A stretch of 62,870 nt of DNA, the filler included, from Jimgerdemannia flammicorona (lineage: Eukaryota), in NCBI GenBank assembly GCA_003990765.1. It is 2 parts of 2 records of this genome, joined end to end, with 100 filler letters (N's around TTAATTAATTAA, not from the genome) between each part and the next. Parts side by side here need not be neighbours in the genome. Positions count along the whole stretch, not along the records: positions 31,493 to 62,870 come from RBNJ01000405.1; 1 more part is not named here. One strand, written 5' to 3'. The notes under the pieces were generated by a model. The model saw only the letters and a list, made by a program, of their open reading frames with translations, did no database searches and was not told the origin of the DNA. The translations under genes were made by a program, and so were the position numbers. This document shows, piece by piece, positions 519 through 62,870 of this stretch (positions are counted from its first letter, which is position 1; every line of letters begins with the position of its first letter).

Positions 519-609
519 CATCCCCTGCACCTTTCACTGGTAACATTCAGATGATACAAGACTCAGATAATACTTTCAATAACATTTTTGGTGAAAGGTG
601 ACTAGTAAC

Positions 610-2632: not shown

Positions 2633-2663
2633 AGGATGAGATCACTTTTTAACATTATTTCTT

Positions 2664-24893: not shown

Positions 24894-26716
24894 TGCCCTC
24901 TGATTGCTCATTCGCATCTTCCTTCTGTTTCTTCTTTAATCCATCACTCTCATTTTGCATTTTTGTCATCTTCTGGTGCCTCCGGCTCTGCTGGAGAGGA
25001 TTAAAAAATATCCTTGCCCCCTCCAGGGTCTTGTGCTTGCTCCGGGGTCTCGGCCTTACTCTGCTCCCCTCCACTGCCTTCAGCCCCTCACTTCACTCGG
25101 GCTTGCTGCAGCTTGCTCTGTTTTGGCCTCACCCCTTGCTCACACTCACTCCTCCGGGGTCTGTAGATGTTTTTTAATCTCGATTTGGATTTGTTTTGTT
25201 TGTATTTGTTTGTAATTTTTATCCTGCAACTAGGATTGGCTCCCCCTTTATCTCTGCTTATCTCTGACAGTTATGTGGTTTCTAATTTGGTTTGCCTTGA
25301 GTTGTGATATGTTCTCTCTTTTGGGACGTCATATTTTATATATAAGGACCACATTTTTACATAGCAATAAATGGCTGATACAATTTTGGTTACGTTCTTT
25401 GTTCATCCCCCTTATACACGCTCTTCCACATATCTTCCATTCGCTTTGACACTGGCTCTGGGTTCACTCCCTTAGCTCCCGCTGGGCCTTCTTCCTCCTC
25501 TACTAGCATACTATATCTCTACAACACATTGTACCATTATCTACTAAAGATATATAGACAGCAAATCCAATGAAAACAAAGATAATGCACCTCTTCTCTA
25601 TCTACTGATATCCTACCCAATATATGAGACAGATGATACTATCTTATAGGTTAGTAATATAGTTCTAACCTACTACTATATAAATAAATAAAGAGATATA
25701 ATCCAAGAACCACACTTCCTAGATAACTACTTTATCAAAGATGATATTATTGATAATGATATCATAGAAGAATATCCAGATAGTATCTAAATCTATAAAT
25801 AGCTTAGTAATTATTAGTATAGTTAGATTAATCTTATACTATATAACTGTATACTGACTCAGCAGTCAGATGATCTCTTGACATATCAGTTCACATTTAT
25901 ACTATATGGTGCGTGCTGCAACAAAACCAGACAAAGTGAACATCGAGCAATTGTTGAAAAGACGTTATTTTCCTTGCCTCTTGGCAGGCTTCCTCATTAG
26001 CATCCAGCATACCATCGCTGTTATCCCGGCCGTAGCCAAGATGGCGGGAATTAGTCATAAAGAAGATATTTGACTTGAATTACTTTTTTCTTCAATTTTA
26101 TTCTTACCTCAGATTTTGGCGTATTTTTCGGGGTCACGGAGTTTTTCGGCTATTCGTTCGTTTTCCATAGTGCCTGAAATTTTGTTATCAGTAGGTCGTG
26201 CTTCATTCGGTAATCATCATCTCTGCAGTTTGTATCTAGGAAATAAACCAACTACCAGTTCAGAATTATGATAATTATCGACAAAAGCCAAAGGAGTTTT
26301 TGATTCTTCATTTTTAAGATTTCACTCTTCTCGAAGTCAAATTTTAACAGTGAAATCATGACAAACTTTCTTGTCTTCCATCTTTCACATTAACTCCTTA
26401 AGCATTTCACCAACTTCGTTTCAAGTTTCTTGGTCGATGGCGTTTATGTCATTGGGTAGATGGTTCTTGGTGGAGATGCCCGTAATTACCATGTTAGCAT
26501 ATGGGGCATGCTGCAGCAAAACCAGACAAAGTCAATACAAGACTATACACGTAAGGTTGTGACTTACTCGATTTATTTTGTAACAGGATATTGTCAATAA
26601 CTACAACCGCGACCATAAAACAGAAAGCATTTTAATTGTCCGAGTCTATGAATATCCAAATATGTTCACTCATGATTTATGCGTTACTCTGTTCTTGCGT
26701 GGCGTGGACTTGGTTT

Positions 26717-30200: not shown

Positions 30201-31392
30201 CCCCCAGGTCCTTTCTCCGCTACCTTACCGGTCACAATGGTTTGGTAGGCAACCTTCTGAGTCCACTTTCCACAATTATTACCCCCTCTACCTCAGGTTG
30301 GTTTGCTGTACCTGTTGCAGGGCAGTGGGAGGGAGGCGATGGTGATGAGTTGCCCCTTTATCAGTGTCAGATCGGTGTCTTCTCCACTTTTTCGCAGATT
30401 CTGGTGCTCTCGGCTGCATCTGGGGTGTACCCGTTTTGGTGTGGCGCCTTCTTCCTTTTGCCATCGCCAACAAGGAGTTGTCTCGGTGTGTCTCGGACTA
30501 CGTAGGGAGTCAGCCGACCTTGGGCGTCAAGTGCTCAGTGTAGGTTACCTGCAGGTCCTCGGTACCTGTGGTGGGGCCCTCTGGCTTTGGCGAGCTTCCT
30601 GGCGAGCACGGTTCTGGCGTAGGTGACTGTTTTTTCGGGTGATATCGGGATGGGAGGGGAGATGGCCGTCACAGATAGGAGGAAGGGTGATAACGGTGAA
30701 CCAGTGGGGTGCCAGGCTGGGGGCAGTCATCGGGGCTAGGGCGGACAATATTTCGGTGGGGCCTTTCGATTGGCTGGTGGGGGGTGGGGTGGTGCAGGGG
30801 CCGGCATCCTGGCTATACCCAACTGGAACCGGGAGCTGATGCAGTAATGCGATTGAGGCCCACAGACTTGGGGAGTGGGACCTTCCTCATTTGGCAGTAC
30901 CTGACTGGAACCGGGAGCTGACACGGCAACATGATTGAGGCCTGCAGGCTCGGGGAGTGGGAGTGGGGTCTTTTCAGGCCCTAGCCCATGTGTAAGTCCT
31001 TTGAGGGTGGTGTTGTGTATAAGTCCTGCTTTGAATCTACTTTACTCTCTGTTAGTTGGTTGGGGGGTTTTTTTCTTTGCCTTGAGCTTTCTTTTGGGGT
31101 TCGGAGGGCTATTCTTTATTCAATCCCGGCGCTGCTAGATCCGATGTGTAGGTGTGCTCTCGCATGTAAATGATGATCCAGCCCTGGTGAGCAGATAAGT
31201 CTAGTCTATGTCGTTGGGGTCAACGTAGCCGGTGTTTGACAGGTATAGCTGGAGTGGTGGGACTGTTGGACAATTTAGTAGCCTAGGTTAATGGGGGGAT
31301 ATTGTTCGGTGGGTGGTGGGGGAGGGTTTTGGCCTATATAGTCTAGGTTCCCTTCCAATAAAAATCTGCGGGACTATGAGTCCATTAAAAAA
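30201..31392 (+). mobile_element. SINE-like element copy 3, least mutated (CpGs retained), poly(A) runs into the gap
   Basis: Homologous to 15170-16360; ends AATAAAAATCTGCGGGACTATGAGTCCATT(A)n; internal ~82-bp tandem duplication ~30821-30965. Confidence 0.88.
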
Positions 31393-37632: not shown

Positions 37633-38798
37633 TATACTTTCTATAGTTATGGTACTATATATTGCTGGGTTATAGTAAGCTGATAGCTATTGTTCATGTC
37701 ACTTATATTTGGGTAGTAGAGTTGTCAGTTTAATTTCAAGAGTTATCTAGAGGTATAGATTGTGTTCTCCAGTTTTCTCATTATAGTTGAAGTAATTAGA
37801 TATGAATGCAGATTGGTACTCATACCAGTAGTCACTATTCCAATAGGTCTCATAGGTTGTTATGAACTATTATAAGTTTATTGATAAGGTTGGTGGAGTA
37901 ATTAGAGCTGGTAGAGATTCTTGGCTGGAGGTTATATCAGTGTTAGAGGGATTGTTATCTTCTACTTCATTATTATCAAACTAGATTATATATATTGTAG
38001 ATATCCTTCATAGCATATCTGACTTGGGGCATTTATAAGATATAGTCATCAGGGTGTAGGAAGGTTCAGTCTGTGGTCTGAATATACTCAATATACTTAT
38101 AATTGAGTTTTTATACTATATCATTGATTTGGCCATAAGACAGAATAGTAATCATTTCAGTGATAGTAACTTAGAGGTAGAGAATAAAGATGCTATACTT
38201 ATAGAAGAGTTCTTGGTATTTGCAGGTGATAAGTTTTTAGTATTGGGATATCTGGGTAATATCTATATCATGGTAGTATTTGACCATATCTTCTAGGAGA
38301 CAGCTGATCTAGTAGTAGCTTGAGATTTGTCCAATTCAGTAGACTTTGCTAAGTATGTTCAGGGCATTCCATTGGGCTTCTATAAAGTAGAGAGATGCTA
38401 GGCTATAGATATTTATGAGGGGTAGAGGAGGGGTAGCTCAGTTGACAATAGTATTCCAAATATCAATATGGATGCAGTTGTAGATCTCAGTGGTCATGGT
38501 TGTGTATATATTTAAGAGTTGTAGTTATTTGTTTTATTTATTGTAGTTCTCTATTTTAATATATCTGAGTACTCAATATATATATATATTCAGTCCTAAT
38601 TGGTAAGATTCCATTTGTATAAATCTTATATTCTGTAACTTTGAGTTGACTCAGCTTTGTACTCTGTGACTTTGGTTTAACTCAGCTTCGTAATCTTATA
38701 TGTAGTTTTCAGATTTGTTCAGAGAGTAGTGTGTGATTTTAGTGACTTGTTCTGAGGGTGAGGTGCAATTTTAGTGGCTTGAAGGTTGTATACTCATA
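37633..38798 (-). mobile_element. Family-B LTR, 5' ~1.17 kb
   Basis: Reverse complement matches 55636-~56785; its ORF is in frame across the site frameshifted in the 55636 copy. Confidence 0.88.
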
Positions 38799-40521
38799 CT
38801 AGAACTAGAAATTCATAGAGTCCAAAGAGAGTCATGAATGTAGTCTTAGAGATATCTTCTGGTTTGATTCAGATTTAGTGGTAGTCTGACATAAATAGTA
38901 CTCCTAATAAATTGAATTAAAGATTCAATTAAATTCAATTCAAATCAAATTGAAGACTAATTAATTTTGTAATCTGATTTGAACCCTATTTTTAGAAATA
39001 TAATAACTTAATAAAAATATATCAAAATTTAATAATCTTTAGCTTATTATATTTCTCTTATATAGGGAAATCTAACAAGCTAAAGATCATTAAATTTGGA
39101 TATATATTTGTTGAGTTATTATATTTCAAAAAATAGGGTTCAAATTGGACCCTCAATTTAATTTGAATTCAAATCAATTCAAACTTAATTCAAATTAAAA
39201 AAATCCCTAATTTAATTCAATTTGAATGACCCTTAATTTAATTTTATTTAAATTAATTCAATTTATTTAAGAGTACTAGATATGAGGTCCAACTTGATGA
39301 AGTACTTGGCATTCTTGAGAGTATCAAAAATCTGATCAATCAAGGATAGCAGATATCAGTTCTTAACTATTATCTTGTTAAGTATATGATAGTCTATATA
39401 TATTTATAGGGTACTATCCTTTTTCTTGACAAATAGAACTAGTGAGTCATAGAGAGATTTGCTTAATTGAATAACTTCTCATATAAATAGTTTTTCTAAT
39501 TCTTTCTTAACTACTTCAATTTTGAGTAGTGATATACAGTATATATATTTCTTAGGTGGTACAGATCCTGGGGTCAGTTAAATTTTGTAATCAACTTCTT
39601 ATATAGATAGTAGACCAGATAGCTTTATCTGGGAAGATCTCTTTGAATTCTTCAAGCAGTAACTTAATACTTTTATTGATTGATAGCTTCTTGTCTTATT
39701 TCTTAGAATGGACTATTGTAACAAGACATGTATTATCTTCTTGAGTGCTTTTTTGTACTATATTGCTAATAGTATTGTAACTGGAATCTTGTTTACAAAC
39801 TTGTCTATTTTGATAATGATATTGACTCCTTCTTAAAGTAGGGTAACTTTATTCTTATATCAATCAATATTTAGATTGTATTTCATGAGCCAGGGTTTTC
39901 TTAAGATCAAATTATGATCTCCTAGTGGTGTGACCATGAAGTCTACTTGTTTCCAATATTTCTGGATCTTGATGAGTAGTTTAGCAATAATTAACTTAAT
40001 AAGATATAGTATACTATCTATAGTAACTATACTATTATTCTTGAGTACAGGCTTGATAAGAATCTTGAGGGTTTCAATGAGATTCTGGTTGATGAAGTTT
40101 CCTGCAGCTTCACTGTCTATGAGTACTTGAACTTCTTTTTCTTTAACTAGATCTTTGAAGATGAGCATAGCTTGAGCTCAATTTTCAGTAAGACTTACTG
40201 CTTGATCAGTATTACTAAAACCTTTCTGATCTTACTTAGTTTTAGATAGTTCTTGGACTTTTGTAATCTTAGATTGACTAGCTTTTTCTAGGCTCATTTG
40301 CCTGACTTGGTCTCCTTTCTTGACTATATAGTCTTGGTCCTTCTGATTGACAAGTAAGACTTGAACTTGTCCTTGATAATCTGAGTCAATGATACCAGTA
40401 TCTCTATCTAAATGATATTTAATACTGAGTTCTGATTATAGTATAATTTTAGTATAATGTCTTTTAGGATATTGGACTGCAATTCTAGTAGGTACTAGAG
40501 TTTGGTCTTTGGCTAGAATAG
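38799..40521 (-). pseudogene. Ty3/Gypsy pol fragment with dUTPase-protease-RT order (probable internal region of family B)
   Basis: GIIDSDYQG at 40370-40396 with KKGDQV.QM and decayed RG.KGFG.T motifs; protease VLIDSEA in ORF 39860-40168; RT KLDL..YHQI.I...KT.F.T.FGLYEF. Confidence 0.85.
38896..39278. mobile_element. hAT-type MITE (~383 bp, near-palindromic) inserted in the RT
   Basis: TIRs TAGTACTC(C/T)TAA(A)TAAATTGAATT; flanks GACATAAA / GATATGAG differ only by C>T/G>A, consistent with a decayed 8-bp TSD; RT frame rejoins when it is removed. Confidence 0.85.
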
Positions 40522-41135
40522 CATATTATCAATTTGGCCATAGGATAGAGTAGTAACCATTTCAGTAATAGTAACTCAGAGGTGGAGAATAAAGGTACTG
40601 TACTTATAAAAGAGTTCTTGGTATTTATAGGTGATGAGTTTCTGATATTGAGATATCTGGATACTATTTATATTATAGTAATATTCAACCATATCTTATA
40701 AGAGATAGCTAATCAGATAGTAGCTTGAGATTTGTCTGATTTGGTAGACTTTACTAAGTATATTCCATCAGGCTTTCATAAAGTAAAGAGGTGCTAGGCT
40801 ATGGATATTCATAAGGAGTAGAAGAGGTGTGACTTGGTTGACAATGATATTCTAAATATCAGTATGAATGTAGTTGTAGATCTCAGTAGTCATATTTGTT
40901 TAATTTATTATAGTTCTCTGTTTCAATATATCTGTGTTTTCAGTATATATATATACTTTTGGTCCTGATTGGTAAGATTCCATTTATATAATTCTTATTT
41001 TCTATGACTTTGAGTTGACTCAGCTTTGTACTCTATAACTTCAGTTTGACTTAGCTTTGTAATCTTATATGTAATATCTAGATTTGTTCTGAGGGTGATA
41101 TGTGATTTCAGTGGCTTGAAGGTTGTACACTTATA
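40522..41135 (-). mobile_element. Family-B LTR, 5' ~0.6 kb, fused to the dUTPase fragment
   Basis: Starts TATAAGTGTACAACC; matches 55636-~56305. Confidence 0.85.
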
Positions 41136-44100
41136 TAGAGGCTATCTGGATATTTTTCAATAAGGTCACTATCAATGACATCACTTCTGATAAAGTAGTC
41201 ATCTAGGAAGAGTGGTTCTTAGATGATATCTTTCTGTTCATTTATATATTAGTAGGTTGGAATCATATTACTATCCTATAGGATAGCATTATCTGTTCCA
41301 TATACTGAGTAGGGTATCAGTGAGTAGAGAAGGAGTATATCATCTTTACTTTCATCAGATTTACTATTAGCATACCTTTAGTAGATTATGGTACTATATA
41401 TTGTAGAGTTATAGTATACTAATAGCTATGATTCATTTTATTTATACTCAGAAGGTAAGGTTGTTGGTTCAATCTCAAGAGTTGTCTGGAGATATAGATT
41501 ATGTTCTCTGGTCTCTTTATTGTAGTTGAAGTAATCAGGTATAAATACAGGTTGGTACTCATACCAGTGGTCATTATGAGTCATAATTTATAACCAGAGG
41601 CTTATAAAGTCTAAGCAGTCTCCTGACTTCTGATGTCATTAGTTTTAAAGGTATTATTATATCTAATTTTTATAAAATTAGAGCTATTCTCAATAGAGAT
41701 AGTTGCACAGAAATAGTAGGTCTTAGTTCTCTTTTTTTTTGAACTGTTGGTATATTTGTAAGAACTAGCCATTCTTATCTAGGATGAGGGCTCTCATTGT
41801 TATAGCTGGGGGTTTGAACCTCTCAGAAATGATATTTCTGTAATCTAAAGTAATTTCTAGTAGCAATATCTGTCATATAGATGGGCTTAAGATTGGTTTC
41901 AACATTGTCAGCTTTCTTAAGTTCTATATAAAGTATCTGTCATTCTCTAATAGAAGTGATACAGATGGAGTGAACAGAGTTATTCAAATGTATTTTACTT
42001 TTACAGAGTAATAAGGTCATATGTGGTTACAGTATATCTTGGTCTTGAGTATAACTCTATCAGAGTCTTGAGTTGATAAATGTGGTTTATAAACCTTTAA
42101 TAAATGAGATAAGGTCCTTCTTATTTCAGTTTAAGTTTAGTGCTCTAGTTTTCTTCTATAATAGTATGGTATACTAAGACTTATTATTCAATGAGTCGAG
42201 GTTCAAGGTTAGTTTTATAGTTATAGTACTTCTTCTAGCATTCTTGTACCTTGGTAATAAATCCTTATACTTGCTGACATACTTTATATAATCAGATGAT
42301 CTCTTTAGTAACTCATTTTATAATCTTGTATATGATTTCTAAATTTGTTCTGAGAGGAACATGTGATTTTAGTAGTTTGGAGATTGTGTACTTATAACTC
42401 TCTCCTTCTTATCTTTCAATGTCCTTGTTGAGGTCTTCTAATTTAATCTAATATTATTATACCATTGAAATAGTCAAAAGTCTAGTAATGTTTATTTTTC
42501 TCAGAAAGTAGTATACTCATAATATAGTTGCCTAATATGTTAGATTCATATATTAAAGAGTTGTATGTTCAATACTATGTGCTGGAAGTAATTCTGATAT
42601 TATTTACTAATGGAGAATTTTCTCTAAGGAATCTTCTTAAATGTCTATATCTCATTTTCCACTAGTAGTACAGGGAGAATAGGCTGTCTTTTAGTTTGCT
42701 ATTTTCTAGAGAGTTGGTATTCCTTTTATCTTAACTTACTGAGTTCTTGATTTCATTTGTAATAATTATAAGAATACTTTTAACAATGTTTAGGAGGAGT
42801 AATATATAGTATAGGACTAATAAGTATTGAAGTATTCAAGTTTAGTTATTTAAAAAATCATATTCTTGAACTAAGTTGATGGTTTTTATAGCTATGTTTA
42901 TTGAGAATTTATTCAAAATTATATTCTTTCTAGTCATTAATGATGTTAGGTGCTAGTGGTTTTATAGTTTGATTTGGAAATAGCTCATTGTTATTTTCAT
43001 TATATTGCTTGAGATATTAGATATTAAAGACAGAGTGAATCTTGATAGTATCTAGTAGTACTAATTTGTAGAAAGTTGGAGAGACTTATTCAATAGTCTA
43101 ATAAATTTGCTATTTAGCTTTATAGAGAGTCTGTACTTAAGGTTGTCAACTTGGTATCCTCAGATATCTAATAGAACTTTTTCTCCAATATCAAAAGTTT
43201 CTTTTTAGTAATACTAATTGATATACTATTATTGTTGCTCTTGAGCTTAAGATAAATTCTCAATTACAATCTAGCTTAAGTTATATATATATTTAGAGCA
43301 GAAATTCTTTAATAGCTTCAATAGTGGTGAGATTATCAGTAGTTCAGATAAGTATCAGAGAAGTGTTTGGATTTTATTCTATATTAGTAAAGAACAGAGT
43401 TATTTCAAGATATACTTATTTACTATTATTATAGGCAAACTCAACTATAGTGAGATATTTATGCTAATTATCTTGTCTATAGAAAATATAGTTTCTTAGC
43501 ATTTATTCTAAAGTTTGATTCATCCTTTTAATTTGGTTATTAGTTTTGAGATAAAAGACTATAAATAGTACAAGTTTTATTCCAAGATATATATATAGAG
43601 CTTTTCAAAAAATAGCTGATGAATTTCAGATCTCAGTTATTAATAATAATCTTAGAGAGACCATGATAGCAGAAGATGTTATCAAATAAGAGTGGCAATT
43701 TTAGGTACTGTTGTAATTGTAGTAGTAGGTATAAAGTGGGCTTGTTTGCTAAGATAGTCTATAAAGACAACAATTACATCTTTTCCATTCTTAATTCAGG
43801 GTAGTTATATAATGAAGTCATAGAGATTTGTTTCCAATTAGTAGATAGTACTGAGATAGAGTAGAGTAGGCTAGGTTTTGCTAGTATTGAGGACTTATTA
43901 TATTAGTAGATATTATAGGAAGTGATATAGATCTTTAGCTAATCTACCATATAGAGCCAATAGAAGTCTAAGAAAATAACTTTATAGTATTTATTAAATC
44001 CTAGATATCTAGCTGTAGGAGCATTATGATATTCAAATAGAATAGTTCTTTGGAGATCTCAATTATTAGGAACATATAATCTGTTCAGTAGAGAGCATTA

Positions 44101-48146: not shown

Positions 48147-48409
48147 TCTGAGAAGTGGCTTCTGGTGTAGTCTTTGAGATGAATTGCTTGATTATTTCTT
48201 CAATCTTCTTCTTTTTCTTCTTGTATTCATTATTAGTCTTAGGTTCTTTATCATCTAATCAAATGACAATCTTATTGATAGTATTGTTTATATCCTCAAA
48301 GACTTCAGAAAGATAGTTAACATAAAATTGAAGTTTTTTATAAAGTGAGGTCATTTTTTAGAGTTTAGTTTATTTTTATTATTAAAGTTAGCTTATTTAT
48401 ATATATTTT

Positions 48410-49255
48410 ACCTATACTTGTTATAATATCTGAAACTCTTAACTTATGCTTATGTATTATACTTATTATAATACTTAAAGCTCTCAGCTTATGCTTGTTA
48501 CTTATAGAATTGTGGACTTGCACTTGTTATAATATTTGAAGCTCTCAGCTTATACTTATTACTTATGAGATTGTGGACTTATACTTATTACAATATTCAA
48601 AGCTCTTAGCTTATATTTATTGTTTGCAAAATTGTACTTATTGCAATATTCAAAGCTTTTAGCTTATATTTATTACTCATAAAATTGCTAGCTTATGCTT
48701 ATTTGCCAGATTATATACTTGTACTTATTGTAATATTTGAAGCTCTTGGCTTATACTTATTGCTTATGGGATTGCTAGCTTATACTTATTACTCATAAGA
48801 TTGTAGACTTATACTTGTTGTAATATTCAAAGCTCTTAGCTTATATTTATTACTTACAGAATTGTGAGCTTATGCTTGTTGTAATATTCAATACTCTTGG
48901 CTTATACTTAATACTTATAGGATTATACTTATTGTAATATTTGAAGCTCTCAGCTTATACTTATTACTTATAAAATTATCAGCTTATACTTGTTATTTAT
49001 AGAATTGTACTTATTGTAATATTTGAAGCTCTTGACTTATACTTATTGCTCACAGAATTACTGGCTTATGCTTATTACTTATTAGATTACAGGCTTATAC
49101 TTGTTGCAATATTTGAAGCTCTTATTGTTACTTGTGAAATTGCTGGCTTATGCTTATTGCTTATAGGATTGCAGACTTATACTTGTTATAATATTTGAAA
49201 CTCTTGGCTTATACTTATTACTTGCAGAATTACAGACTTGTGAGCTTATAAGCAT
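48410..49255. repeat. Degenerate AT-rich minisatellite
   Basis: Recurrent GCTTATACTT(A/G)TT and ATATT(T/C)(G/A)AAGCTCT motifs. Confidence 0.85.
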
Positions 49256-50888
49256 AAGTATTTCAGATATAGTAACTAAGTATATATAATATATATTCTT
49301 AAGCTTTGAATATATTTGAAATTTTATATATTATACCATTTATACTGCTTGTCATCTATCTCTAGTACTCTCAGATGGATATAAGATATCTTATCTCACT
49401 CATCTCATCAGAGCTAGAAATAATAAAAATTATATTTAGATATAGTATATCTATAAGTTCTGGGTTATGCTTATATAATATAATACCCAAGTGCTATATT
49501 TATTTGATATTTTGAAATATAACTATATTTTGAGATTTGGGATTAGCTATTGTTATTAGAATACTAGACTGATTATTATATTTTTAAACATATATATTCA
49601 CAAATTTTTTCAGAGTCTAAAGTACCTCTTTTAGCTACTATAAGATCTTTATCACTTGAAAAAACTCTCTCAATTAAAGTACTTATTACTGGGATAGTTA
49701 AGTAATTATGTGCTATTTTTACTAGATTTGAGAAATCTCTGCTATAGCCCTAATATTTCCAATCAATTAAATCAATTAGAGAAACTCAAATAATATTTTG
49801 AATTGACCTAATTTGAATATGAATTCTCAACTCATTTACCACTAAGATAATTTATCAACTCTTGCTTAAAATTTAACAGTTTCACTTTTCAAATAAGCAT
49901 CTATCTCTTTCTCAGAATTTATCATCAGTTTTTGTCTTTTGTTAAATATATATTCATATAGTATAGTATTGATATCATCCTCTACTGCTTCATAATCTTT
50001 AGAACTTATTCAATTAATTAATCTAGATAGAGAAGTATAGTTTTCATTATAAACTGTATGAAGTTTATTTTTGGTCTCTTTAATCCAAATATCTTCCCAA
50101 TCATATAATAAATAATATTCTAGCTTAAGCTTGAGATTGAGTACTGGTTTTCATTATAAAATAAAATTTAAAATAAATTAGTAGTGATTAATAAGTGAAT
50201 TTTGAAATAGATTTATACTGTTTTCAATAATAAGTAAATTTCAAAATAGATTTATACTGTCTCTGACATCAAGCAAATTTTGAAATATTTACTTACTAGT
50301 ATTAATATAATAAATTGGAGTATTTATTATTAAATAATATATCTTCAACTTAGTAATAGTTGCAGTTAGTATTAGGGTGAATAATATTCAGCTCTTTGAA
50401 TTTCTTGATTATTATCCTCCAATATATCCATTAGAAAGTTATAAATAGAAATATGTAGCAAATAAATTATTAGATATTTATAATGAGCTATAATATCTGT
50501 TACTTGTTTAAAGCACTTTAGTATACTAATAATATTTTTTAGTATTTATCAAATATAGTCTTCTATAGTATATTTTTTCAAATCTTTATCAGCTATAACT
50601 GTTGAGATTAAAGGCTATTAATAAATTAATTCATTAAATTATTTAATGTAATAGTGATCCCAGAATGATGACATCAGCACAAGAGATAGCCTTTTCTTAC
50701 AAGCCATCAGATCAGAGTACAAGAAGATCATATGGTATATAAGATGAGTAATAATGACCAACTGTGAGTTATTGTGACCATAGTATGGGTATCTTGAGAA
50801 ATATAAAAGAAGGATCAAGGAACTGCAGTAGCAGTAATCAATAAGATCCACCAATTCCAAAATAGCTCAAAGACTTATTACAAACAAA

Positions 50889-51716
50889 ATGCCTGCTGCT
50901 CATCAAACCTCAAGGTCAAGGAATCACCAAGGTACCTCAGTTAAAGAAAGGATATTCCAAGACATCAGAAGAGCCATGAGGACCTGCTCAAGAAGGACTT
51001 CTAGTGTCAATCTGGGTACTAGTGACTCTTATCAATATATTCTCTACTGCTATAAAATGGAAACAAGAATCACTATTGCTACCAAATGCCTCCAAATATA
51101 GCAGGAGTATGAAATAGGAAACCTCCTCTACTGGGAGTTCCCACAGACTAGCCCTCAAGAGTTACAAGATGTCACTCTTATACATATATGTATATGAGAA
51201 GTAAGGATAGCTAAGAAGATTCATCAGATCTTCAGACATACACCATAGTTGATCCCCAACTTAAAGTATATTAGAGTCTCAGATTTCAGAGATCTGTCAG
51301 CCCACTATATCAATACACTAGAAGCCAGAGTGGCTACAGAAGTCTAGTCCACTATCACTCTCAATAGTGATAAAGTAGAAGACTTCTGGCATCTCATCCT
51401 CCAGGACAACTCAGACAAATTTTTACAAAAATTAATCTCAGTATTCCAAGGCCCAAGCATCCAGGTTAGACTTCTCCAAGATCTCACATTTGTCCCTTAT
51501 TTTGTGGAAGAGAACCTCATAGACTGGAGAGCTCTAGACCTCCTTGTTCCCACCACTACTGAATGTGATGATATCATTGGTGATGACATCATCCTGTATG
51601 ATATATGCGAAATACATGACCTATATAATGAGACTGAAACATTCATGGACCTCATCTCCTTTGAGGACAGCAATGATGAGGATGAAGCCCTTATGGTCTT
51701 AAATATTTTACTCTAA
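50889..51716 (+). pseudogene. ~275-aa ORF of unknown function inside the family-A LTR
   Basis: ORF pieces 50889-51101 and 51504-51716 share one frame; same ORF in all four LTR copies; stops are of deamination type. Confidence 0.82.
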
Positions 51717-54412
51717 AGTCTATTAGTTACACTAAATAATGCCAGCACTCTTTTCCTGTGTAATAGCTATTCCTCCACCAGTATTCTGATGTGATACTGA
51801 ATTATTCCAGCACTATTTTTCTATATTACCAAAATTATACCAGCATTCTGATCCTGTACAACTATCAGTGCTGATACTGGAACTTAGCAGTTTTCCATAT
51901 TCTGATATTTTATTTTAGTTATTGGAATTTATATTTAGCTTTATATATTAGCAATCATTGAATTATATTTTGTATAAATACCTCTCTTATTTTCTCTAAA
52001 ATAAAGTCAGTTCTGGTTCACTTATATACAATCCCTTACAAGCAATTTAAAAGATAACAAGATAGTTTAAAGATAAAAAGTTTGAGGACTATAAGATCTT
52101 GGAAAGGCACTCCAATAAGAACTTGCTTATAACAAACTTGAGTTAGTCTAAGAGATATATCTTAAAGAGAATCTGATATATTTGAAGGACTCAGCAACTA
52201 CTACATGACAACTTGGTACTCATTGGCTAGTGATTCAAGATGAATCCCTCACTTTTAAGCTGAAAAACAAACAACTACCACAACAACTACTCTAACTACA
52301 AGAGTTACCCCTGCAAGAATTCAAGATAAGATAGAAATATACCCCCCTATATTTTATGGATATACTACTAAAGAGTTAATCCTGACCTTCATTGAAGACT
52401 TTGAACAATTTACTATCATACAAGCCCTCAATGTAGATATACAATTAGCCCTTCTACCAGTCAGCCTCAGAGGCCTGCCAGAGACAAGTTCAATATAGCC
52501 ACTATTACTGATACTGGTGTAGCCAAACTTGCCAACATGAAGGCCTTCCTCAGAACAACATACTATACTAAAGAGATTAAGCAATCTCTCAAGGATCAAC
52601 TCAACACTATCTGCCAGAGACTCAGTAAAGATCTCAATTCATTCTATAACTAAATCTGCCACCAGATTGTCTTGGCTGACTATGATGACCATCTTAAGGA
52701 ACAAATAGCAGATTCAACCTTTCTCAAAGGAGTTCACCCTAAAATTGACCTAGCAATCTGGTCCACCCCAGCTGCATCAGAAAGTGGTCTTTACACAGAG
52801 ATATTGGACTGCCAGACACCCTGCTAAATACTCAATAGAGAAAATAACTGACATCAAGATGAAGCCATTAAAGCCAACTAGTATCATACCTGCTATAGTT
52901 GTAAACAGACAACCATCCCCACCTACCCCCAAGGTATCCAAAGCTGACCCAGTGGAGAAACTCACCAAGCAGTTTACCGAGATAACTATACACCTTGGTG
53001 ATATTGTTAGAGAAGTCCAAAGTACCAACAAGAGACCAGTACAAAGATTTGCAGTTGCTATAGAAGAATGCAATATTACATGCTTCAGATATAGAGAAGA
53101 AGGCCAATATGTAAAGAGTTATATAACTGAAATAAGATATAAAGCCCAACCAAGCAATGCTAGCAGAACCAGAGAACAAATCAATGCAGTAGTCATTGAG
53201 AAGATTGGTGATACTGATGATGAAGAATACTATGAGGAGCTCAAATTCTACCCTACTACTGAAGGTACTAGAGCCCAGTTCAAGCCCTATGACAAGAAGA
53301 GCAACAGTAAGCCAGTTGAAAGACTGAAGAAAACCCCAGCTATCACTATTCAAAGCAAGACCCAACCTGAGAAGATTGATCAAGATATAGAGTTAGATGA
53401 AGCTGCCCACCAAATTATTGAAGACACTACTCCAGTCTCAGGAGAAAGCAAAAGCAAGAAGGAACAGAAGCTGTGTAAGACCAAGATCCACTAGTATGAT
53501 ATCTACAAGAATCTCAAGAAACAGAAGATCAATGCTACTTTTGGACAACTAGCTGAAGTCTCTGCCTTCAGACAGCAGTTAAGAGTAGAACTTGCAACTA
53601 CTGCCAAGAATCAAGAGTACAAGATTGTAGAAGCTCACAATATACAGAAAGAATCCAAGAACTTAGGTGAAGAATTCAAAGACCAGCACAAGACATCAGC
53701 CTATACTCCATTTCAGATCAAAGATTGTATCTTTGATACCATCATTGATACTGGTACTGGAGGATGCCTTATGAGCAAGAAGGCAATTGACTGCCTAGGC
53801 TGGGATATTGAAGAGTCCACTAAGATGGTCTATGTTATAGCAGATAGTATATGAGCTATCCTTCTTGGCAAAATCTGAGAAGTCCCCATTAAGATAGGGG
53901 GAGCTACCATCTCAGTAAATATGATTGTTACAAGTACTGCCAACTATGACATCCTCATTGGCAATCAATGGCTTCACAAGGCCAATACCATTATTGACCT
54001 CAATGCTCAGAAGATATAGATCAACTATAGAGGAAGAAAGGTATGAGTCTCTATCAATGTCTACAAAGGAGTTCTATCAGACATGGAGGAAGAAGATGAA
54101 GAGGACACAGAAGTCCTCATATACTTGGTGAATAAGAATAAGAACAAGACACCTAAGCTCACAGATGAGCAGTGGTACAACAAGATCATCAATGGATATG
54201 CCCCTCAAGGAAGATGCCCCCATAGTACTAGGATGTACTGCTCTGAATACCTGAATGACTGCTAGTCCTGTATCAGTGAAGTCAGGAAAATCTGCAAACA
54301 GAAACATGAGCAAGAAGCTGCTGAAGCAAAAAGGAAAGCTGAAGAAGATGACCAGCCCCCAGAGCTACAAGTTGACAGTGATGATGAGGAGGAACAAGAA
54401 CCAGACATTACC

Positions 54413-54815
54413 CTCAAAGTCAAGAAGTTTTACTCTGAAGCCAAGATCCCAGAATACAAGACTATAGGAATGGACCTTGCCAGCATTCAAGATACTACTC
54501 TCAAACCACAGACCACTACCCTACTTAGCACTGAAATTGGAGTCAAGCTGCCAGAGAACTATGCCAGAATTATCAAGACCAGGTGCAGTCTGGCCAAAAG
54601 TGAAATCTCAGTTGAAGGAGGAGTAATTGACTCTGATTACACTGGCAAGATCTTCCTCATAGTCAGGAATCACAACCCCACCACCCCATTCGAAGTTAAG
54701 AAGCATGACAGGATTGGCCAGATGCTGATCTATGAAATCAAGAAGCCTAAGATCACTGAAGCCATCAAACTCATCAAGACCAAGAGAGGAGAACAAAGCT
54801 TTGGATCTAGTGGAA
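54413..54815 (+). pseudogene. dut: dUTPase domain within pol, between protease and RT
   Basis: GMDL, RCSLAK, GVIDSDYTG, DRIGQM, RGEQSFGSSG: all five dUTPase motifs. Confidence 0.93.
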
Positions 54816-55635
54816 GAGAAGTCTACACCACCACTAAGATTACTGAACTGGAACACAAGAAAGATAAGGACCAGAATAAGCACACATATACCATTGGAGA
54901 AAACTTTCTCCTGAAAGAACAACTTCTCAAGATCCTGCATTAGAATGAAGAAGTACTTGCTACAGACTTCAGGGATATCTACAATCAAGAACTCAAATAC
55001 TATCATGAAGTTGACACTGGTAATACTAAGCCCATCTACCAGAAAGCCAGACCCATACCACCTATCTATAGAGAATGGCTGCAAGCAGAACTCAAGGAAA
55101 TGGAAGAAGCCAGAATCATCAAGCAAGCTATCAGTCTCTGGGCTTCACCTATTATCCTTGCCCCAAAGAAAGGAAGCAAGCCTGGAGAGTTTGCACTAAG
55201 ACTCTGTATTGACTACAGAAAGCTCAATACAATTACCAAAAAGGATAGGCAGCCCTTGCCAAATATTCAAGAAATCCTTATCACTCTTGGAAGCAAAGTC
55301 AAATACTATACCACCTTGGATCTGTTCTCAAGCTTCCATCAGATTGGTCTCACTCAAGATGCCAGTGAGAAATCAGTCTTCATCACACCTGATGCCATTT
55401 ATATCTACCTGTAAATGTCATTTGGAATATATAATGCTCTAGCAAGTTTTCAGCAAATGATAAACAGAGTCTTCAGCACACCACATGGGAACATATTAAC
55501 TATATACAGTTAGCCCTCAAGAAGCTCAAGGAGTATGGCCTCTACATCAAGCCCAAGAAGTATAAGTTTGCAGCTCAGGAAATTGTCTACTTAGGACACC
55601 TCATCAACCAGACCAGAATCCATACAGACCCTATG

Positions 55636-57698
55636 TATAAGTGCACAACCTCCAAGCCACCAAAATCACATGTCACCCTCTGAACAAGTCACTGAAATCA
55701 CACATGACCTCCAAACAAATCTGGAAATCACCTGCTTGATCACAAAGCTGAGTCAAACCGAAGTAACAGCACATAAAGCTGAGTCAATACGAAGTCACGA
55801 AACACAAGATTTACACAAACAGAATCTTACCAATCAGGATCAAATGTATATATACTAAGCCCCAAGACATGTCAAAACAGAGAACCAAAACAAACAAACT
55901 ACAACTTCTGAATATATACAAATATGACCACTGAGATCTATAACTGCATCTGCACTGACATTTGGAATACCATTGTCAACCAAGCTACATCCCCTCTACC
56001 CCTCATGAATATTCATAGCCTAGCACCCCTCTACTTCGTGGAAGCCTGATAGAATGCTCTGAATATGCTTAGTGAGGCCCACCGAATCAGGCAAATCTCA
56101 AGCTACTACCAGATCAGCTATCTCCTATAAGATATGGTCAAACACTACCACAATACAGACATTACCCAGATGTCTCAACACCAGAAGCTCATCACCTGCA
56201 AACATTGAGAACTCTTCTATAAGTATAGTACTGTTATTCCCCACCTCTGAGTTACTACCACTGAAATGGTTGCTACTCTGTCCTATGGCCAAATTGATGA
56301 TATGATATAGGAACTCAACCACAAGTACCTCGAGTACATTGAAACTACAGACAGAACCTTCCCACACCTCAATGATTATATCCTGCAAATGCCCCAAGTC
56401 AGATATGCCATGAAGGACATCTACAATATAATCCACTTTGACAAAGACAAAGCAGAAGACAATGATCCCCTGATGCCAACATGACCTCTAGTCAAGAATC
56501 TCTGCCAACCCTGATCACACCACCAACCTTGCCGATGAACTTACAACAGTTCATAATCACATATAAGACTTATTGGGACAATGACTACTGGTATGAATAC
56601 CAACTCACGTTCACCTCCAATTACTTCAACTACAATGAAGAGACTGAAGAACACAACCTGTACCTTCAGACAATCCTTGAGATCGAACCAACAACTCCAC
56701 TACCTGAGTATGAGCGACATAAACCACAACCACCAGCTTACTACAACCCTGTGACTCACAGTGCTGTAACCTACAGAAAGTATGCAGATAGCAAATCTGA
56801 TGAAAGTGAAGATGATACACCCCTCCTTTGCCCACCAATACCTTACCCAGCATATGAGACTAACAATGCTATCTTGTGGGATGGAGACGAAGTTCCAATA
56901 TATTACTACCTCAGCCAACAAGGAGAAGTAATCCGCGAACCACTCTTTCTGGATGACTACTTCATCAGAGATGATATCATCAATAGTGATATCATCGAAG
57001 ACTACCCAGACAGCATCTAAAGCTATAAATAGCCTAGCAGTCATAGTATAGTTAGATTAGCCTTATACAATGTGACTGTGAACTGACTCAGCAGTCAGAC
57101 GATCTCTTGACATGTCAGATTACACTTGCACTACATGACTGTATTCTGACTCAGCAAAGTACTAAGTGCTATATCTATATCTAGCATAGTCCAGATAGCC
57201 CCTCACTAGTATAAATACCCCCTCCCCCAGACCTCAGAATCTCAGATCTGAACAATCTGAATACAACTCCTGAGCACTTCTCTACAATATCCCTTCATAC
57301 AACTACCCCTAGTATAGCAATATCATAAATAGTAAATAAACCTATTTAATAATCCACAAACCACTCTTAAGTAAATTTGCTTCTCATTAGGTCCCACTTC
57401 TAACTCTGTCACGAAATTTCCTAATTGGGTATTGTCTGCAGTGATATGCCAATTCAACTAAGCTAGCCTTAGTTTCTTAAACTTCCTGAAATACAGAAAA
57501 TCCTGAACATTCAGAACTAGTCCAAAAAAGGACTTTGGTTGAGACATCAACCCAATCTTGAAATCAATAAGCATAGAGGACATACTCCATATGAAATTGA
57601 TCTTGACCATAAGAAAATGGTCTTCCAGAATATCCAGAACCTCCAGAAAACCCTTCCAGAACTATGTAATGGTTACCCTAAAAAGCAACCCTCTTATA
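55636..57698 (+). mobile_element. Solo LTR of family B (2063 bp)
   Basis: 5-bp TSD CTATG (55631-55635, 57699-57703); removal restores pol HTDP-MKIEAI; termini TA...TA are decayed TG...CA (the copy ending at 17081 ends CA); TATA 57210, AATAAA 57335. Confidence 0.92.
55924..57020 (+). pseudogene. ~365-aa ORF of unknown function inside the family-B LTR
   Basis: MTTEIYN... frame with TGA/TAG/TAA stops, a 1-bp deletion near 56470 (absent in the 37633-38798 copy), then open ORF 56481-57020. Confidence 0.78.
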
Positions 57699-60600
57699 CT
57701 ATGAAGATTGAGGCTATTGCAACCTACCCAAGACCCAGAACAACTACAGAAGTTCATGCCTTCCTTAGACTGACTTCTTACTATAGAAGATTCATCAAAG
57801 AATACTCTAACATTACAGCACCTATCTATAAGCTACTGAAGAAGGAGAACAAATTCGAATGGACCAAGAAACCTTCAATAAACTCAAGACCAGATTGACC
57901 CAAGCACCTATTCTCAGAAGATCAGATTGGAATCTAGAGTTCATCCTGCAGACAGATGCAAGTGCTATAAGACTTGAGTCCTAGCTCAGAAGAAAGATGG
58001 ATATGAATATGTCATCTCCTATATAAGCTGAGATATCTATAGAGCAGAACTGAACTACAAGTCATATAAGCTTGAATACTTAGCAGTAGTTTGGGCAGTA
58101 GATAAGTTCTACTACTACTTAACTAGGAAATACTTCACCATTCAAACAGACTATTCTGCTCTTACCTGACTGTTCCACACTCTGAACTCTAAAGAAATAT
58201 ACCAGATGGATCTACAGGCTGCAAGAGTATGATTGTACTGTCAAGCACTACTTAGAGAAAACCAATACCAATGCTGATACACTCTCAAGGATACTCTGAA
58301 ATACTCCATCAAGACTATTCAATATAAATAATATACTATGGATTAATTAGCTATCTTGGGCAGTGGAAGATGCCCAACTACCTCAAACTCTGGACAATCA
58401 CCATCATCAACTAGACTTGGAAACAGTTTGAACTAAATAATACCATTCTCAGAAAAAGAAGAAAGCTAGTAATACCCAAACACAAGAAGTATCAAGTAAT
58501 ATGAGCAAGGACATCTAGGTGGAACCAATATATATGATAAGGTAAAAAGAACCATATAGTGGCCCAAGATGGAAGAAGACCTGCACCAATTTGTCAAAGG
58601 GTGTGATAAGTACCAAAAACAGAAACAAGATCAGCAAGATCAGACACCTGAGTCATCAAGAATTGAACCTATCCCCTTTCACCACATTGCAATGGATATC
58701 ATTGGGCCACTACCAGTAATACTATCAGGAAACTGCTATATTATAGTTATTGTAGATCTCTTTATCAAATGGATAGAAGTAGGAGTATTACAAGAAGTCA
58801 ATGCCCTCTCTATAGCCAACTTCCTGCATCAAGAAATCATTTGCTACTACAAGACACCAAGACAAATTACTACAGACTATGGCACAGAATTTATCAATGG
58901 ATTCCATGAGATAATATATCAGAAATATAAGATTCAGTACATCAAGATCACCACATACCACCCTTAAGGAAATAGACAGATAGAGAGAACCAACAAGACC
59001 CTCAAGAACATCCTAGCAAAGATCTCAGACACATACAAGAATTGGGATAACTACCTCCCAACTGTCCTCTCTGTCCTACAAGATATACAGTCACAGAGTA
59101 TACACTTTATCTCAAGAGAACTGCTCTTCAGAGAAGAAGATTCTGATAGAACCTCAGCTATAAATCTGGACCTAACTTAGAGATAGGTTGATACAGAAAT
59201 CCAGAGGCTATACCAAATCAGGAAGAAGGCTGAAGATTATATCATCAAGTCACAAGTACTGATAAGAAAGAATGTGAAAAAGAATCACAAGACCCTAGAA
59301 CCCATCCAAATTGGAGAAAAGGTCCTACTATATTGAAATATAGTAGAAGCCTCATAGTTATGAAAACTGAAGCCCAAATGAGAAGGACTCTTCTATGTAC
59401 AAGATATCAAGAGAACTACCTTCTGGCTTAGAAAAATCTTAGGGACCATACTGCCTACCATAGTATACAGAAACAGACTCAAGAAGTACCATGAACCTAT
59501 ACAAGAGAAGTAAAATGTGATGACCACCCATGAGGTTCTAGTCCATGAATCATAACAATATGTTCCATGACTAGCAGGCTATCTGTCTGGACCATTTTCT
59601 AAGAGATACAGCACTAGTAACTACTCATCTGTGAGACTTTCAAAACTAGAGGAGTTCAAACTGCCAACTGATTGGTCAAGATCAGAATCAGGCCCTTGCT
59701 TTATATGAAGGGAGTGACCCTTCACCATTACACTAAAATACAAAGAGAAGATACCAGTCCATAAACACTACTTTTTGACCCCTTGCCAGAGATTATGGGA
59801 TCAGCAAATTTTTCAAGACTAGATTAATGAATAAGGATATTTAAGAAGATCCTTATTCAGAAGAGAGATGTAGTGATAACTCTAGAATAGTGATATCAGC
59901 ACAGGAGATAGCCTTTTCTTGCAAGTCATTAGATCAGAGCATAAGAAGATCATATGTATGATATATAAGATGAGTAATGATGACTAACTGTGAGTCATTG
60001 TGACCATAGTATAGGTATCTTGAGGAATATAAAAGAAGGATCAAGGAACCACAGTAGCAGTAACCAATAAGATCCACTAATCCCAAAATAGCTCAAAGAC
60101 TTATCATAAACAAAATATCTATTGTTTACCAAATCTTAAGGTCAAGGAACTACCAAGGCACCTCAGTTGAAGAAAAGATGTTCCAAGACATCAGAAGAGC
60201 CATGAGGATCTGCTCAAGAAGGACTCCTAGTGTCAACCTGGATACTGGTGACTCTTATCAGTATATCCTCTACTGCTGTGAAATAGAAACAAGGATCACC
60301 ATTGCTACTGAATACCTTCAAATATAGTAGGAGTATGAAATAGGAAACCTCCTCTGCTGAGAGTTCCCACAGGCCAGCCCTCAAGAGTTATAAGATGCCA
60401 CTCCTATATATATATAAGAAGTAAGAACAGCTAAGAAGATTCATCAGATCTTCAGGTATGTACCATAATCAATCCCCAACTTGGAGTATATTAGAGTCTC
60501 AGATTTCAGAGATCTGTCAGCCTACTATATTAATACACTAGAAGTCAGAGTGGCTACAGAAGCCCAGTCCACTATCACCCTCAATAATTATGAAGTAGAA

Positions 60601-61899
60601 GACTTCTGGCATCCCATCCTCCAGAACAACCTAGACCAATTCCTGCAAGGATTAATCTCAATATTCCAAGGCCCAAGCATCTAGGTTAGATCTTCCCAAG
60701 ACCCTACATTTGTCCCCTATTTCATAGAAGAGAATCTTATAGACTGGAGAGCTCCAGACCTCCTTATTCCCACCACTACTGAATGTGATAATATTATCAG
60801 TAATGACATCATCCTGTATGACATATGCAAGATGTGTGATCTACATAATGAGACTGAAATTTTTGTAGATCTCATCTCTTTTGAGGATAGTGATGATAAT
60901 GAAGTTCCTATAGTCCTGAACATTCTGCTCTAAAGCCCCTTAGTTATACTGAATAATGCTGGCACTCTTTTCCTGTATAACAGCTATTCCTCTACCAGCA
61001 TTCTGATGTAACACTGAATTATTCCAGCACTATTTTCCTATATCACTAAAATTATACCAGTATCCTGACTCTATATAACCATCAGTACTGACACTGAAAC
61101 TTAGCAGTTTTCCATATTCTGGCATTTTATTTTAGTTATTGGAATTTATATTTAGCTTTATATCTTAGCAACCATTGAATTATATTTTGTATAAATACCC
61201 CTCTTATTTTCTCTGAAATAAAGTCAGTTCTGGTTTACTTACACAATTTCTTATAAGCAATTTAAGAGATAACAAGACAGTTTAAAGATAAGAAGTTTGA
61301 GGACTATAAGACCTTAGGAAGGTACTCTAATAAGAACTTACTTATAACAAACTTGAGTTAGTCTAAGAGATATACCTTGAAGAGAATCTGATATATTTGA
61401 AGGACTCAGTGACTACTATGTAATATTTAAAAAAAAAACTGAAAAATAAAACAAATTAAATATAATATAATCAGCTTATCTCTGATAATTCTAAGGCTCA
61501 TTTAACTATCAAATATATTGAAATCTATCAAGTTTTAATGTCCAAAATAAGTTCTTTTAGATTGTAGACTCCAAAAGCTTTATATTGTATAGTAAATCTC
61601 AATATTGTAGTAATGACTAGATCTTGATAATAATTAATCAGAGCTTTGAAATTATTTCTCCAGAACTATCTTCACTCACATCATCATTAGCTTTTAAATA
61701 GACTAAAAAGTCCTGAACAGCCAAATTAATGATATGAGCCAGATAGTATATATATTATATTAACTAATAATTGAGATTAGTATGTATAATCAAACTCTGT
61801 CTTGATTGTTTGAAAAAACATAGTGTTGTTGGATGCATTGTCTATTGTTATAGCTAATATCTAAAGTAAAAAATCAATAATTCAAATATAAGATAATCT

Positions 61900-62302: not shown

Positions 62303-62870
62303 TGTAATGGTGACCCCAGAATGATGACATCAGCACAGGAGATAGCCTTTCTTTACAAGCCACCAGATCAGAATACAAGAAGATCATATGGCATGCGAGA
62401 TGAGCAATGATGACCAACTGTAAGTCATTGTGACCACAGTACAAGCATCCTGAAGAATATAAAAGAAGGATCAAGGAACCGCAGTAGCAGCAGCCAACAA
62501 GAACCCCAATCCCAAAATAGCTCAAAGACTTACCACAAACAAAATGCCTGCTGCCCGCCAAACCTCAAGGTCAAGGAATCATCAAGGTATCTTGGTTGAG
62601 GAAAGGATGTTTCAAGACATCAGAAGAGCCATGAGGACCCGCTCAAGAAGGACTCCTAGTGTCAACCTGGGTACTGCAGACCCTTATCACTTTATCCTCT
62701 ACCGCCATAAAATGGAAACAAGGATCACCATTGCCACCGAATGCCTCCAAATGTGGCAGGAATACGAAATAGGAAACCTCCTCTGCCGGGAGTTCCCACA
62801 GGCCAGCCCTCAAGAGCTACAAGATGCCACCCCCATAGACCTACGTGAGGCAAGGACAGCAAAGAAGATC
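62303..62870 (+). mobile_element. Youngest family-A LTR copy, truncated by the window end
   Basis: Starts TGTAATGGTGACCCCAG like 50647 and 59869; retains CpGs. Confidence 0.92.
62544..62870 (+). CDS. LTR-A ORF, uninterrupted for 109 codons to the window edge (MPAARQTSRSRNHQG...)
   Basis: Manual translation shows no stop; TATAAAAG at 62458-62465 upstream. Confidence 0.75.
   Translation, partial: MPAARQTSRSRNHQGILVEERMFQDIRRAMRTRSRRTPSVNLGTADPYHFILYRHKMETRITIATECLQMWQEYEIGNLLCREFPQASPQELQDATPIDLREARTAKKI

Follow-up and report, generated by a model that had tools for sequence, protein, structure and literature searches.

Protein genes lying in the U3 region of a long terminal repeat (LTR) are known from a few retroviruses, with mouse mammary tumor virus (MMTV) as the textbook case. 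Sag of MMTV, a retrovirus of vertebrates, is a membrane glycoprotein, nef of the human and simian immunodeficiency viruses (HIV/SIV) overlaps U3, and the foamy-virus genes tas and bet are 3' accessory genes that lie partly in U3, with a second promoter upstream, and supply an activator with an acidic activation region. Here we describe a 62,870-nucleotide stretch of the Jimgerdemannia flammicorona assembly GCA_003990765.1 (the window; coordinates count along the whole stretch, filler included, and 31,493 to 62,870 come from RBNJ01000405.1). The window is a repeat-rich nest in which two LTR families, A and B, each carry decayed remnants of a related, undescribed protein gene; what seems to be new is the host of the U3-borne gene, an LTR retrotransposon. 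We take the window copies to be fossils of a real protein-coding gene carried in U3 by related Ty3/Gypsy retrotransposons, a reading to which we give a probability of roughly 70%.

The foamy-virus circuit of internal promoter and Tas serves as the model for the mechanism proposed below; unlike in foamy viruses, the LTR here encloses the entire gene together with a putative promoter. Among retrotransposons, Ty3/Gypsy elements that bear a dUTPase occur in fungi, namely Postia, Phanerochaete, and Tuber (Tmt1), and in bdelloid rotifers. The element that carries family A in the window (element A) has its dUTPase between protease and reverse transcriptase (RT), as do PosPlaTy3-5 (PMC2864245) and Juno/Vesta (PMC5408684), for which the excerpts of these two papers mention no LTR-borne open reading frame (ORF). 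The ORF in the 3' LTR of endogenous Mtv loci governs superantigen expression (PMC2118998), and as in MMTV sag the coding frames described here lie entirely within U3 and hence in both LTRs of an element. Unlike Sag, the A and B proteins are acidic, are predicted to be helical, belong to a Ty3/Gypsy retrotransposon, and match no Pfam family at E values up to 1.

Lineage-specific extra ORFs of LTR retrotransposons include the bdelloid ORF3s (PMC5408684) and CERV of Caenorhabditis elegans Cer1 (PMC10309623), and the ORF0 proteins of rice Retrosat2, RIRE3, and RIRE8 are ~10% similar where pol is >60% similar (PMC3485330). Like these, which evolve much faster than pol and have either a regulatory function or none assigned, the gene considered here is probably a lineage-specific accessory gene. 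However, those ORFs are internal, before gag or after pol, and are therefore not carried by solo LTRs, whereas the A/B ORF lies inside the LTR and is present in 5', 3', and solo copies. Related crapaud LTRs of Podospora keep their 3' half from the TATA box on and diversify the U3 half (PMC10787394). The A and B LTRs likewise have a core promoter block and little else in common, but at 1.56 and 2.06 kb they are far longer than the noncoding crapaud LTRs of 339 to 443 bp, and they contain a protein frame. A search of full-text literature, with subscription papers, Repbase notes, and supplements (such as the element tables of PMC2864245) outside its scope, turned up no LTR retrotransposon whose LTR bears a protein gene.

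Two LTR families and their coding frames

Family A is represented in the window by four copies of an LTR of ~1.56 kb, A1 to A4 (Table 1). An earlier note on this sequence had placed them at 18051, 50647, 59869, and 62303, and these positions were borne out by self-blastn and alignment. A1 and A2 form the LTR pair of one element (50647-61425) with a 5-bp target site duplication (TSD), TTTAA, on both sides, and are 84 to 87% identical to each other. The polypurine tract AGAAGAGAGA directly abuts the 3' LTR, ending at 59868, and the bases that follow the 5' LTR, where a primer-binding site would be expected, begin with ACTTGGTAC. Pfam matches in the interior come in the order RVP_2, dUTPase, RVT_1, RT_RNaseH, Integrase_H2C2, rve. 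Because of this domain order (protease, dUTPase, RT, RNase H, integrase), element A is a Ty3/Gypsy retrotransposon with a dUTPase between protease and RT. The dUTPase match (PF00692, E 3e-23) covers 54470-54943, between the RVP_2 and RVT_1 matches; the ORF there has 157 codons and looks intact. A second, weaker dUTPase-like piece at 40187-40501 (-) adjoins the family B fragment B3.

The RT of element A is interrupted by a family B LTR, B1. Of five public runs listed, none is recorded as RNA. Four public runs, X1 to X4 (three from soil metagenomes, one from a coded organism), were compared with the window as assembled contigs and hold thousands of contigs at least 80% alike to it. In three of the four (X2, X3, and X4), contigs join 55630-55632 to 57699-57701, an empty B1 site with exactly 2,068 bases skipped. 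Copies in another run have a purine-rich loose end preceding the start of the B LTR. B1 is probably the solo LTR of another family, given its CTATG TSD, the joints of its empty site in the contigs, and the purine-rich end before the B start. B1 has TA...TA at its ends, and B5 closes with ...CA.

In both families U3 contains the complete ORF, which precedes the core promoter of the LTR, and the layout is common to the two: ~160 to 210 nt, a TATA-like box, 60 to 90 nt, an ATG, and 275 (A) or ~365 (B) codons, followed by 190 to 260 nt, GTATAAATACCCC, and AATAAA. The ORF starts 242 nt (A) or 288 nt (B) after the LTR start, and its stop is 257 nt (A) or 189 nt (B) from the GTATAAATACC(C)C block. 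From the promoter block to AATAAA the distance is ~27 nt in A, ~125 nt in B, and ~25 nt in L001, a metagenome contig described below. The upstream TATA-like box is kept in all four A copies and in L001, and in A and L001 the ORF begins at the first ATG past it; B1 has an earlier ATG, and other copies read G and C at those positions. The earlier note saw no DNA similarity between the A and B LTRs, which holds at a blastn E value of 1e-10, except for a 13-nt block in common, GTATAAATACCYC. This block has six matches in the window against 0.2 expected, and five of the six lie in A or B LTRs.

The coding frames that the note described are at 50889-51716 (A) and 55924-57020 (B), but none is open over its full length in any window copy, and the sole open piece of ORF-A is the 109-codon stub of A3. 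Besides stops, B1 has a 1-bp deletion after 56469 that puts the C part of its ORF-B into another frame. The B2 copy (N part, eight stops) and the database protein P0007 read through this site, and contigs from X1, X3, and X4 (three of the four runs) have the extra base. In A1, A2, and A4, CpG has fallen to 0 or 1 against ~50 expected, TpA is not in excess, and of the 454 columns that vary, 361 contain nothing but C and T or nothing but G and A. More than 90% of the differences between run contigs and the window are transitions, and T or A in the window facing C or G in the contigs is about twice as frequent as the opposite case. Since CpG is nearly gone and there is no excess of TpA, the decay looks like CpG deamination rather than classic repeat-induced point mutation.

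Intact relatives and comparison of the two proteins

Intact relatives were sought by a word-index search of 5.8 billion proteins at an E value of 0.01 or better. Six were found, all from contigs of 0.7 to 2.4 kb; none carries a Pfam domain, and two are named, both as "hypothetical protein." Four of them, P0001 (271 amino acids [aa]), P0002, P0003, and P0004, are 60 to 69% identical to the ORF-A of A1, P0011 (128 aa, 79% identity) corresponds to the N part of ORF-B, and P0007 (247 aa) corresponds to its C part. An exhaustive phmmer search with the ORF-B C part returned four matches, P0007 alone being judged real; P0008 and P0009 were set aside as long repeat proteins, and P0010 was set aside as a weak match. 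Scanning metagenome contigs with P0002 gave a single locus, L001, a contig of 1,345 bp with a 323-codon ORF that is a divergent member of the A type. Because a TATA box lies upstream of this ORF and GTATAAATACCCC and AATAAA lie downstream, L001 appears to be an LTR as well. A metagenome scan with the A alignment produced 243 pattern matches, of which none was confirmed, and none was confirmed in viral contig scans with P0007 and P0001.

These intact relatives, the open frame of L001, and a neutral simulation indicate that the frame has been held open in diverged relatives and that the gene is real. The L001 frame contains no stops, against 13 to 27 in the other five frames. L001 and A differ at 36% of sites, with gaps falling between codons in a protein-guided alignment, and the differences are distributed over the codon positions as 92/68/134 (p 2e-08). 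When neutral drift is simulated under the observed transition bias, 12 of 20,000 frames are still open at 36% divergence; frames at 15% divergence have 3.4 stops on average, in keeping with the 4 to 7 stops of the window fossils. Among the A-type proteins, conserved blocks alternate with a variable tail that bears whole-residue gaps.

No described accessory family was matched. Pfam, at E values up to 1, returned no family for P0001, P0002, the L001 ORF, P0007, or P0011, and the A profile had no match among PDB sequences at E values up to 1. A match to CMAS (E 0.034) fell below the cut-off and was taken as chance. In the ESM Atlas the best feature score was 0.83 for P0001, P0007 had no usable match, and template-modeling scores were at most 0.33.

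The N-terminal domains of the A and B proteins (~105 to 125 residues) are very probably homologous. BLASTP of the L001 ORF against P0011 gave 32.7 bits and an E value of 1e-06, with 24 of 104 residues identical and 3 gaps, and the Smith-Waterman score was 86 against 32 ± 5.3 for shuffles (z 10.2, reached by 0 of 1,000), while reversed P0011 as a control gave a z of -0.17. The phmmer E value for this pair, as a single comparison, was 1.7e-08, and L001 against the decayed N part of B1 gave a z of 7.3 (0 of 500 shuffles). A hidden Markov model (HMM) of the five intact A-type proteins found P0011 with an E value of 6.9e-07 (3.5e-04 without L001), the HMM of the ORF-B N part found L001 with an E value of 4.2e-05, P0002 matched P0011 with an E value of 0.007, and four of eight A members had z values of 3.6 to 4.1 against P0011. 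About 40 pairwise tests were made in all, and the best results outlast correction for this number by orders of magnitude.

One register appears in all alignments inspected, including the nonsignificant hhalign ones, with PSVNLG... of A on PLMNI... of B and IFRH..IPNL on LFY...IP.L. This is the register that the earlier note had drawn by eye, and it was recovered in BLASTP, in hhalign, and in multiple alignments with intact relatives. The 11 of 43 identities that went with it can be read from the translations, but they become 10 of 43 on the CpG-restored consensus, and the window copies alone are not above chance. The match spans ~105 N-terminal residues. The acidic-isoleucine motif DDIIxxDII, also noted before, was found near the C terminus of both A and B. 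As the pattern [DEN][DEN][IVL][IVLT]xx[DEN][IVL][IVL] it is present in four of the five intact A-type proteins and in B, P0002 having a variant one residue shorter; this pattern was defined after the motif had been seen, and it turns up in 1,187 of 200,000 shuffles of B. The two proteins appear to have a helical N domain and an acidic-isoleucine motif in common, with a middle that is unrelated or past alignment, and the conserved LTR-borne family proposed in the note is upheld by the N domain and the open L001 frame but extends to only ~105 of 275 to 365 residues plus the 9-residue motif. Both types have a strongly acidic tail studded with hydrophobic residues. The N terminus of the A type is basic (net +8 in residues 1 to 40 of P0001), a stretch that is not conserved in B. 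In the A proteins, around residues 160 to 170 of P0001, a conserved acidic stretch is followed by W-x-P-[IL]-L (EVEEFWNPIL; VQDLWNPLL in L001) and is absent from B; it resembles short aromatic docking motifs.

Several results weigh against reading the window copies as fossils of one U3-borne gene. By Smith-Waterman comparison, the raw window copies of A and B reach a z of only 1.7 (34 of 500 shuffles reach the score), and the restored consensuses reach -0.7 (815 of 1,000). The hhalign comparison of A with B, the profile check that the note had called for, gave P values of 0.058, 0.14, and 0.2, with 7 of 120 column-shuffled controls reaching the observed score. The A and B HMMs miss each other's copies within the window, the strong A-B signal depends on the single bridging sequence L001, and ~60% of each protein is without alignment (L001 against P0007, z 1.06). 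A tblastn search with the pol of element A found no B-flanked element, and no full-length B element is present in the window. The NG86 omega of 0.19 to 0.24 for L001 against A (dN/dS being another check that the note had proposed) carries little weight, and we do not rely on it because two LTRs of one element, which are necessarily neutral, give 0.37 under the same transition-rich spectrum. AlphaFold2 models of A and of the ORF-B N part are all-helical, and their predicted local distance difference test values (36.8 and 50.6) are too weak for a fold search. The promoter function of the upstream TATA-like box is a prediction from its sequence.

Whether B is a single gene is a further point of this kind. 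Codon 129 of ORF-B is a stop in B1 (TAG, 56308-56310) and in B2 (TAA), P0007 reads Q there, and P0011 ends exactly at residue 128, before that stop. Since the stops of B1 and B2 coincide with the end of P0011, there may be a short B form holding only the N domain that it has in common with ORF-A. B3 stops two codons past codon 129 and then diverges (40510-40520, -).

The strongest alternative is that A and B each gained or evolved an unrelated U3 ORF, the resemblance being chance plus convergent acidic tails. The hhalign values and their shuffled controls, together with the z values of the window copies and consensuses, are what it would predict, as are the unaligned middle and C parts, and acidic-hydrophobic motifs are easy to evolve. 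However, we consider it unlikely, given the match of L001 to P0011 with its flat reversed control, the A profile that still finds P0011 when L001 is left out, the four A members with raised z values, and the agreement of BLASTP, hhalign, and multiple alignment on one register; in addition, both ORFs occupy the identical place in the LTR and have the 13-nt promoter block in common.

Slightly less probable still is that the gene is a captured host gene passing through the LTRs without a role in the life cycle of the element. Retroelements do capture host ORFs, the varied bdelloid ORF3s being an example (PMC5408684), and the present protein, which matches no known family, may have such an origin. 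Against this stand the small number of relatives, all of them on short contigs, the exhaustive search that gave one real relative of the ORF-B C part, the LTR-like character of L001, which is the one relative with readable DNA, and the retention of the gene at one place in at least three diverged LTR lineages.

That the frames are accidental open stretches, made gene-like by the CpG-restored consensus and by gene callers on short metagenome contigs, is very improbable. In its favor, every copy in the window is broken, putting C and G back necessarily takes stops away (the four A copies, once CpG is restored, give a consensus that is open for 292 codons, with other frames at most 90), and the NG86 baseline is a problem. 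Against it, even the plain majority consensus keeps only 2 stops in the ORF-A frame while its other frames are full of them, the six database proteins and L001 are independent of consensus building, the stop-free L001 frame is a rarity in neutral runs, and there is the alternation of conserved blocks with a gapped tail.

Features of the window and neighboring repeats

Table 1. Positions of LTRs, coding frames, and signals in families A and B
Feature	Position	Strand	Basis or remark
Left TSD TTTAA of element A	50642-50646	.	Read from sequence; right copy 61426-61430
A1, 5' LTR of element A, TG...CA, 1564 bp	50647-52210	+	Self-blastn, alignment, ends
A1 upstream TATA-like box TATAAAAG	50802-50809	+	87 nt before ORF-A ATG; putative promoter
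ORF-A in A1, 275 codons + stop	50889-51716	+	4 in-frame stops, no frameshift
A1 core promoter block GTATAAATACCTC, then AATAAA at 52000	51972-52005	+	
Internal region of element A	52211-59868	+	Pfam, sequence
TSD CTATG of B1 insertion	55631-55635	.	Sequence; second copy 57699-57703
B1, probable family B solo LTR, 2,063 bp, within RT of element A	55636-57698	+	Self-blastn, TSD, contig joints
B1 upstream TATA-like box TATATATA	55847-55854	+	77 nt before ORF-B ATG; putative promoter
ORF-B N part in B1, 182 codons	55924-56469	+	6 in-frame stops; residues ~4-126 are the domain homologous to ORF-A
ORF-B C part in B1, open 179 codons + stop	56481-57020	+	Ends with DDIINSDIIEDYPDSI
B1 core promoter block GTATAAATACCCC, AATAAA at 57335	57209-57340	+	
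A2, 3' LTR of element A	59869-61425	+	Self-blastn, alignment
ORF-A in A2	60115-60933	+	7 in-frame stops, ATG to ATA
A3, family A LTR, runs off window end	62303-62870	+	Self-blastn, alignment
ORF-A in A3, open through its 109 codons	62544-62870	+	Stub ends with window
A4, family A LTR	18051-19601	-	Self-blastn, alignment
ORF-A in A4	18551-19345	-	5 stops and a shifted stretch
B2, family B LTR, first 1.15 kb	37634-38798	-	Inside an RT gene (…FGLYEFLV)
B3, family B LTR, 5' 0.6 kb	40518-41118	-	Abuts B4
B4, family B fragment, ORF-B C part	41136-41581	-	6 stops
B5, family B LTR, 3' half	14801-17081	+	14801-15169 and 16357-17081
B6, family B fragment	25500-25908	+	ORF-B end and bases after
Additional ORF-B fragment	20873-21046	+	
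L001 upstream TATA-like box TATAAAAG	Near contig start		57 nt before ORF

Both B copies with a readable 5' flank have inserted into the RT gene of another Gypsy element, B1 following ...IHTDP (flank at 55631-55636) and B2 following ...FGLYEFLV (flank at 38798-38860, -). So small a number of cases (two or three) may reflect chance, given the nesting of elements here, or a preference for certain targets. B3 joins B4 just past the ORF-B stop, and B5 is divided at 15169/16357, where 1.2 kb of another repeat has inserted. That insertion is one copy of a third, GC-richer repeat family (15173-16356, 19634-20643, and 30209-31209), in which no convincing coding frame was found in the two copies inspected (15173-16356 and 30209-31209).

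The window also contains two elements resembling long interspersed nuclear elements (LINEs), at 528-5923 (+) and 9530-14820 (-), which are ~65% identical and inverted, carry endonuclease and RT-like frames, and have extreme GC skew (+0.5 and -0.5) at ~50% GC. The first of these lies within a Gypsy element on the minus strand (353-517 and 6444-9025) and interrupts the integrase of that element. An AT-rich, internally repetitive region at 48364-49249 gives several overlapping self-blastn matches at 66 to 74% identity.

Proposed mechanism and significance for LTR retrotransposons

If the window copies are fossils of a U3-borne gene, a simple cycle may be proposed. Because the gene lies wholly in U3, under the replication scheme of retroelements it would travel as the last, 3'-terminal cistron of the genomic RNA and would be copied by reverse transcription into both LTRs. 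The upstream TATA box and the poly(A) signal of the LTR would then make each LTR a self-contained transcription unit, so that the 5' LTR and solo LTRs might express the gene as well. Since their insertion, the window copies have decayed through CpG transitions. The note's further suggestion that the family survives and multiplies as solo LTRs is not supported, for solo LTRs are products of recombination that make no copies of themselves, and the copies in the window are dead and CpG decayed.

As to what the product does, the acidic, hydrophobic-studded tail resembles activation regions, and for this reason we tentatively raise the possibility of a trans-acting nuclear regulator, an activator or adaptor working through that tail as the products of 3' accessory genes of complex retroviruses do. 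A role in RNA export or in countering silencing would likewise be a guess. More doubtful is the extension of this idea in which every LTR, solo LTRs included, would be a stand-alone gene encoding a trans regulator of the family's own LTR promoter, the retrotransposon counterpart of the foamy-virus Tas circuit. Were that so, the solo LTRs that recombination has left behind in the thousands would keep supplying a factor, or a competitor, to active elements, and the host could take over solo LTR genes.

LTRs are usually treated as noncoding promoter and terminator modules; they are masked in annotation, and solo LTRs are counted as inert. If a gene has been kept open in the U3 of at least three LTR lineages, then some retrotransposons would have an accessory-gene layout that had been linked only with complex retroviruses, solo LTRs could remain genetically active, and a whole orphan protein family would lie hidden in masked sequence.

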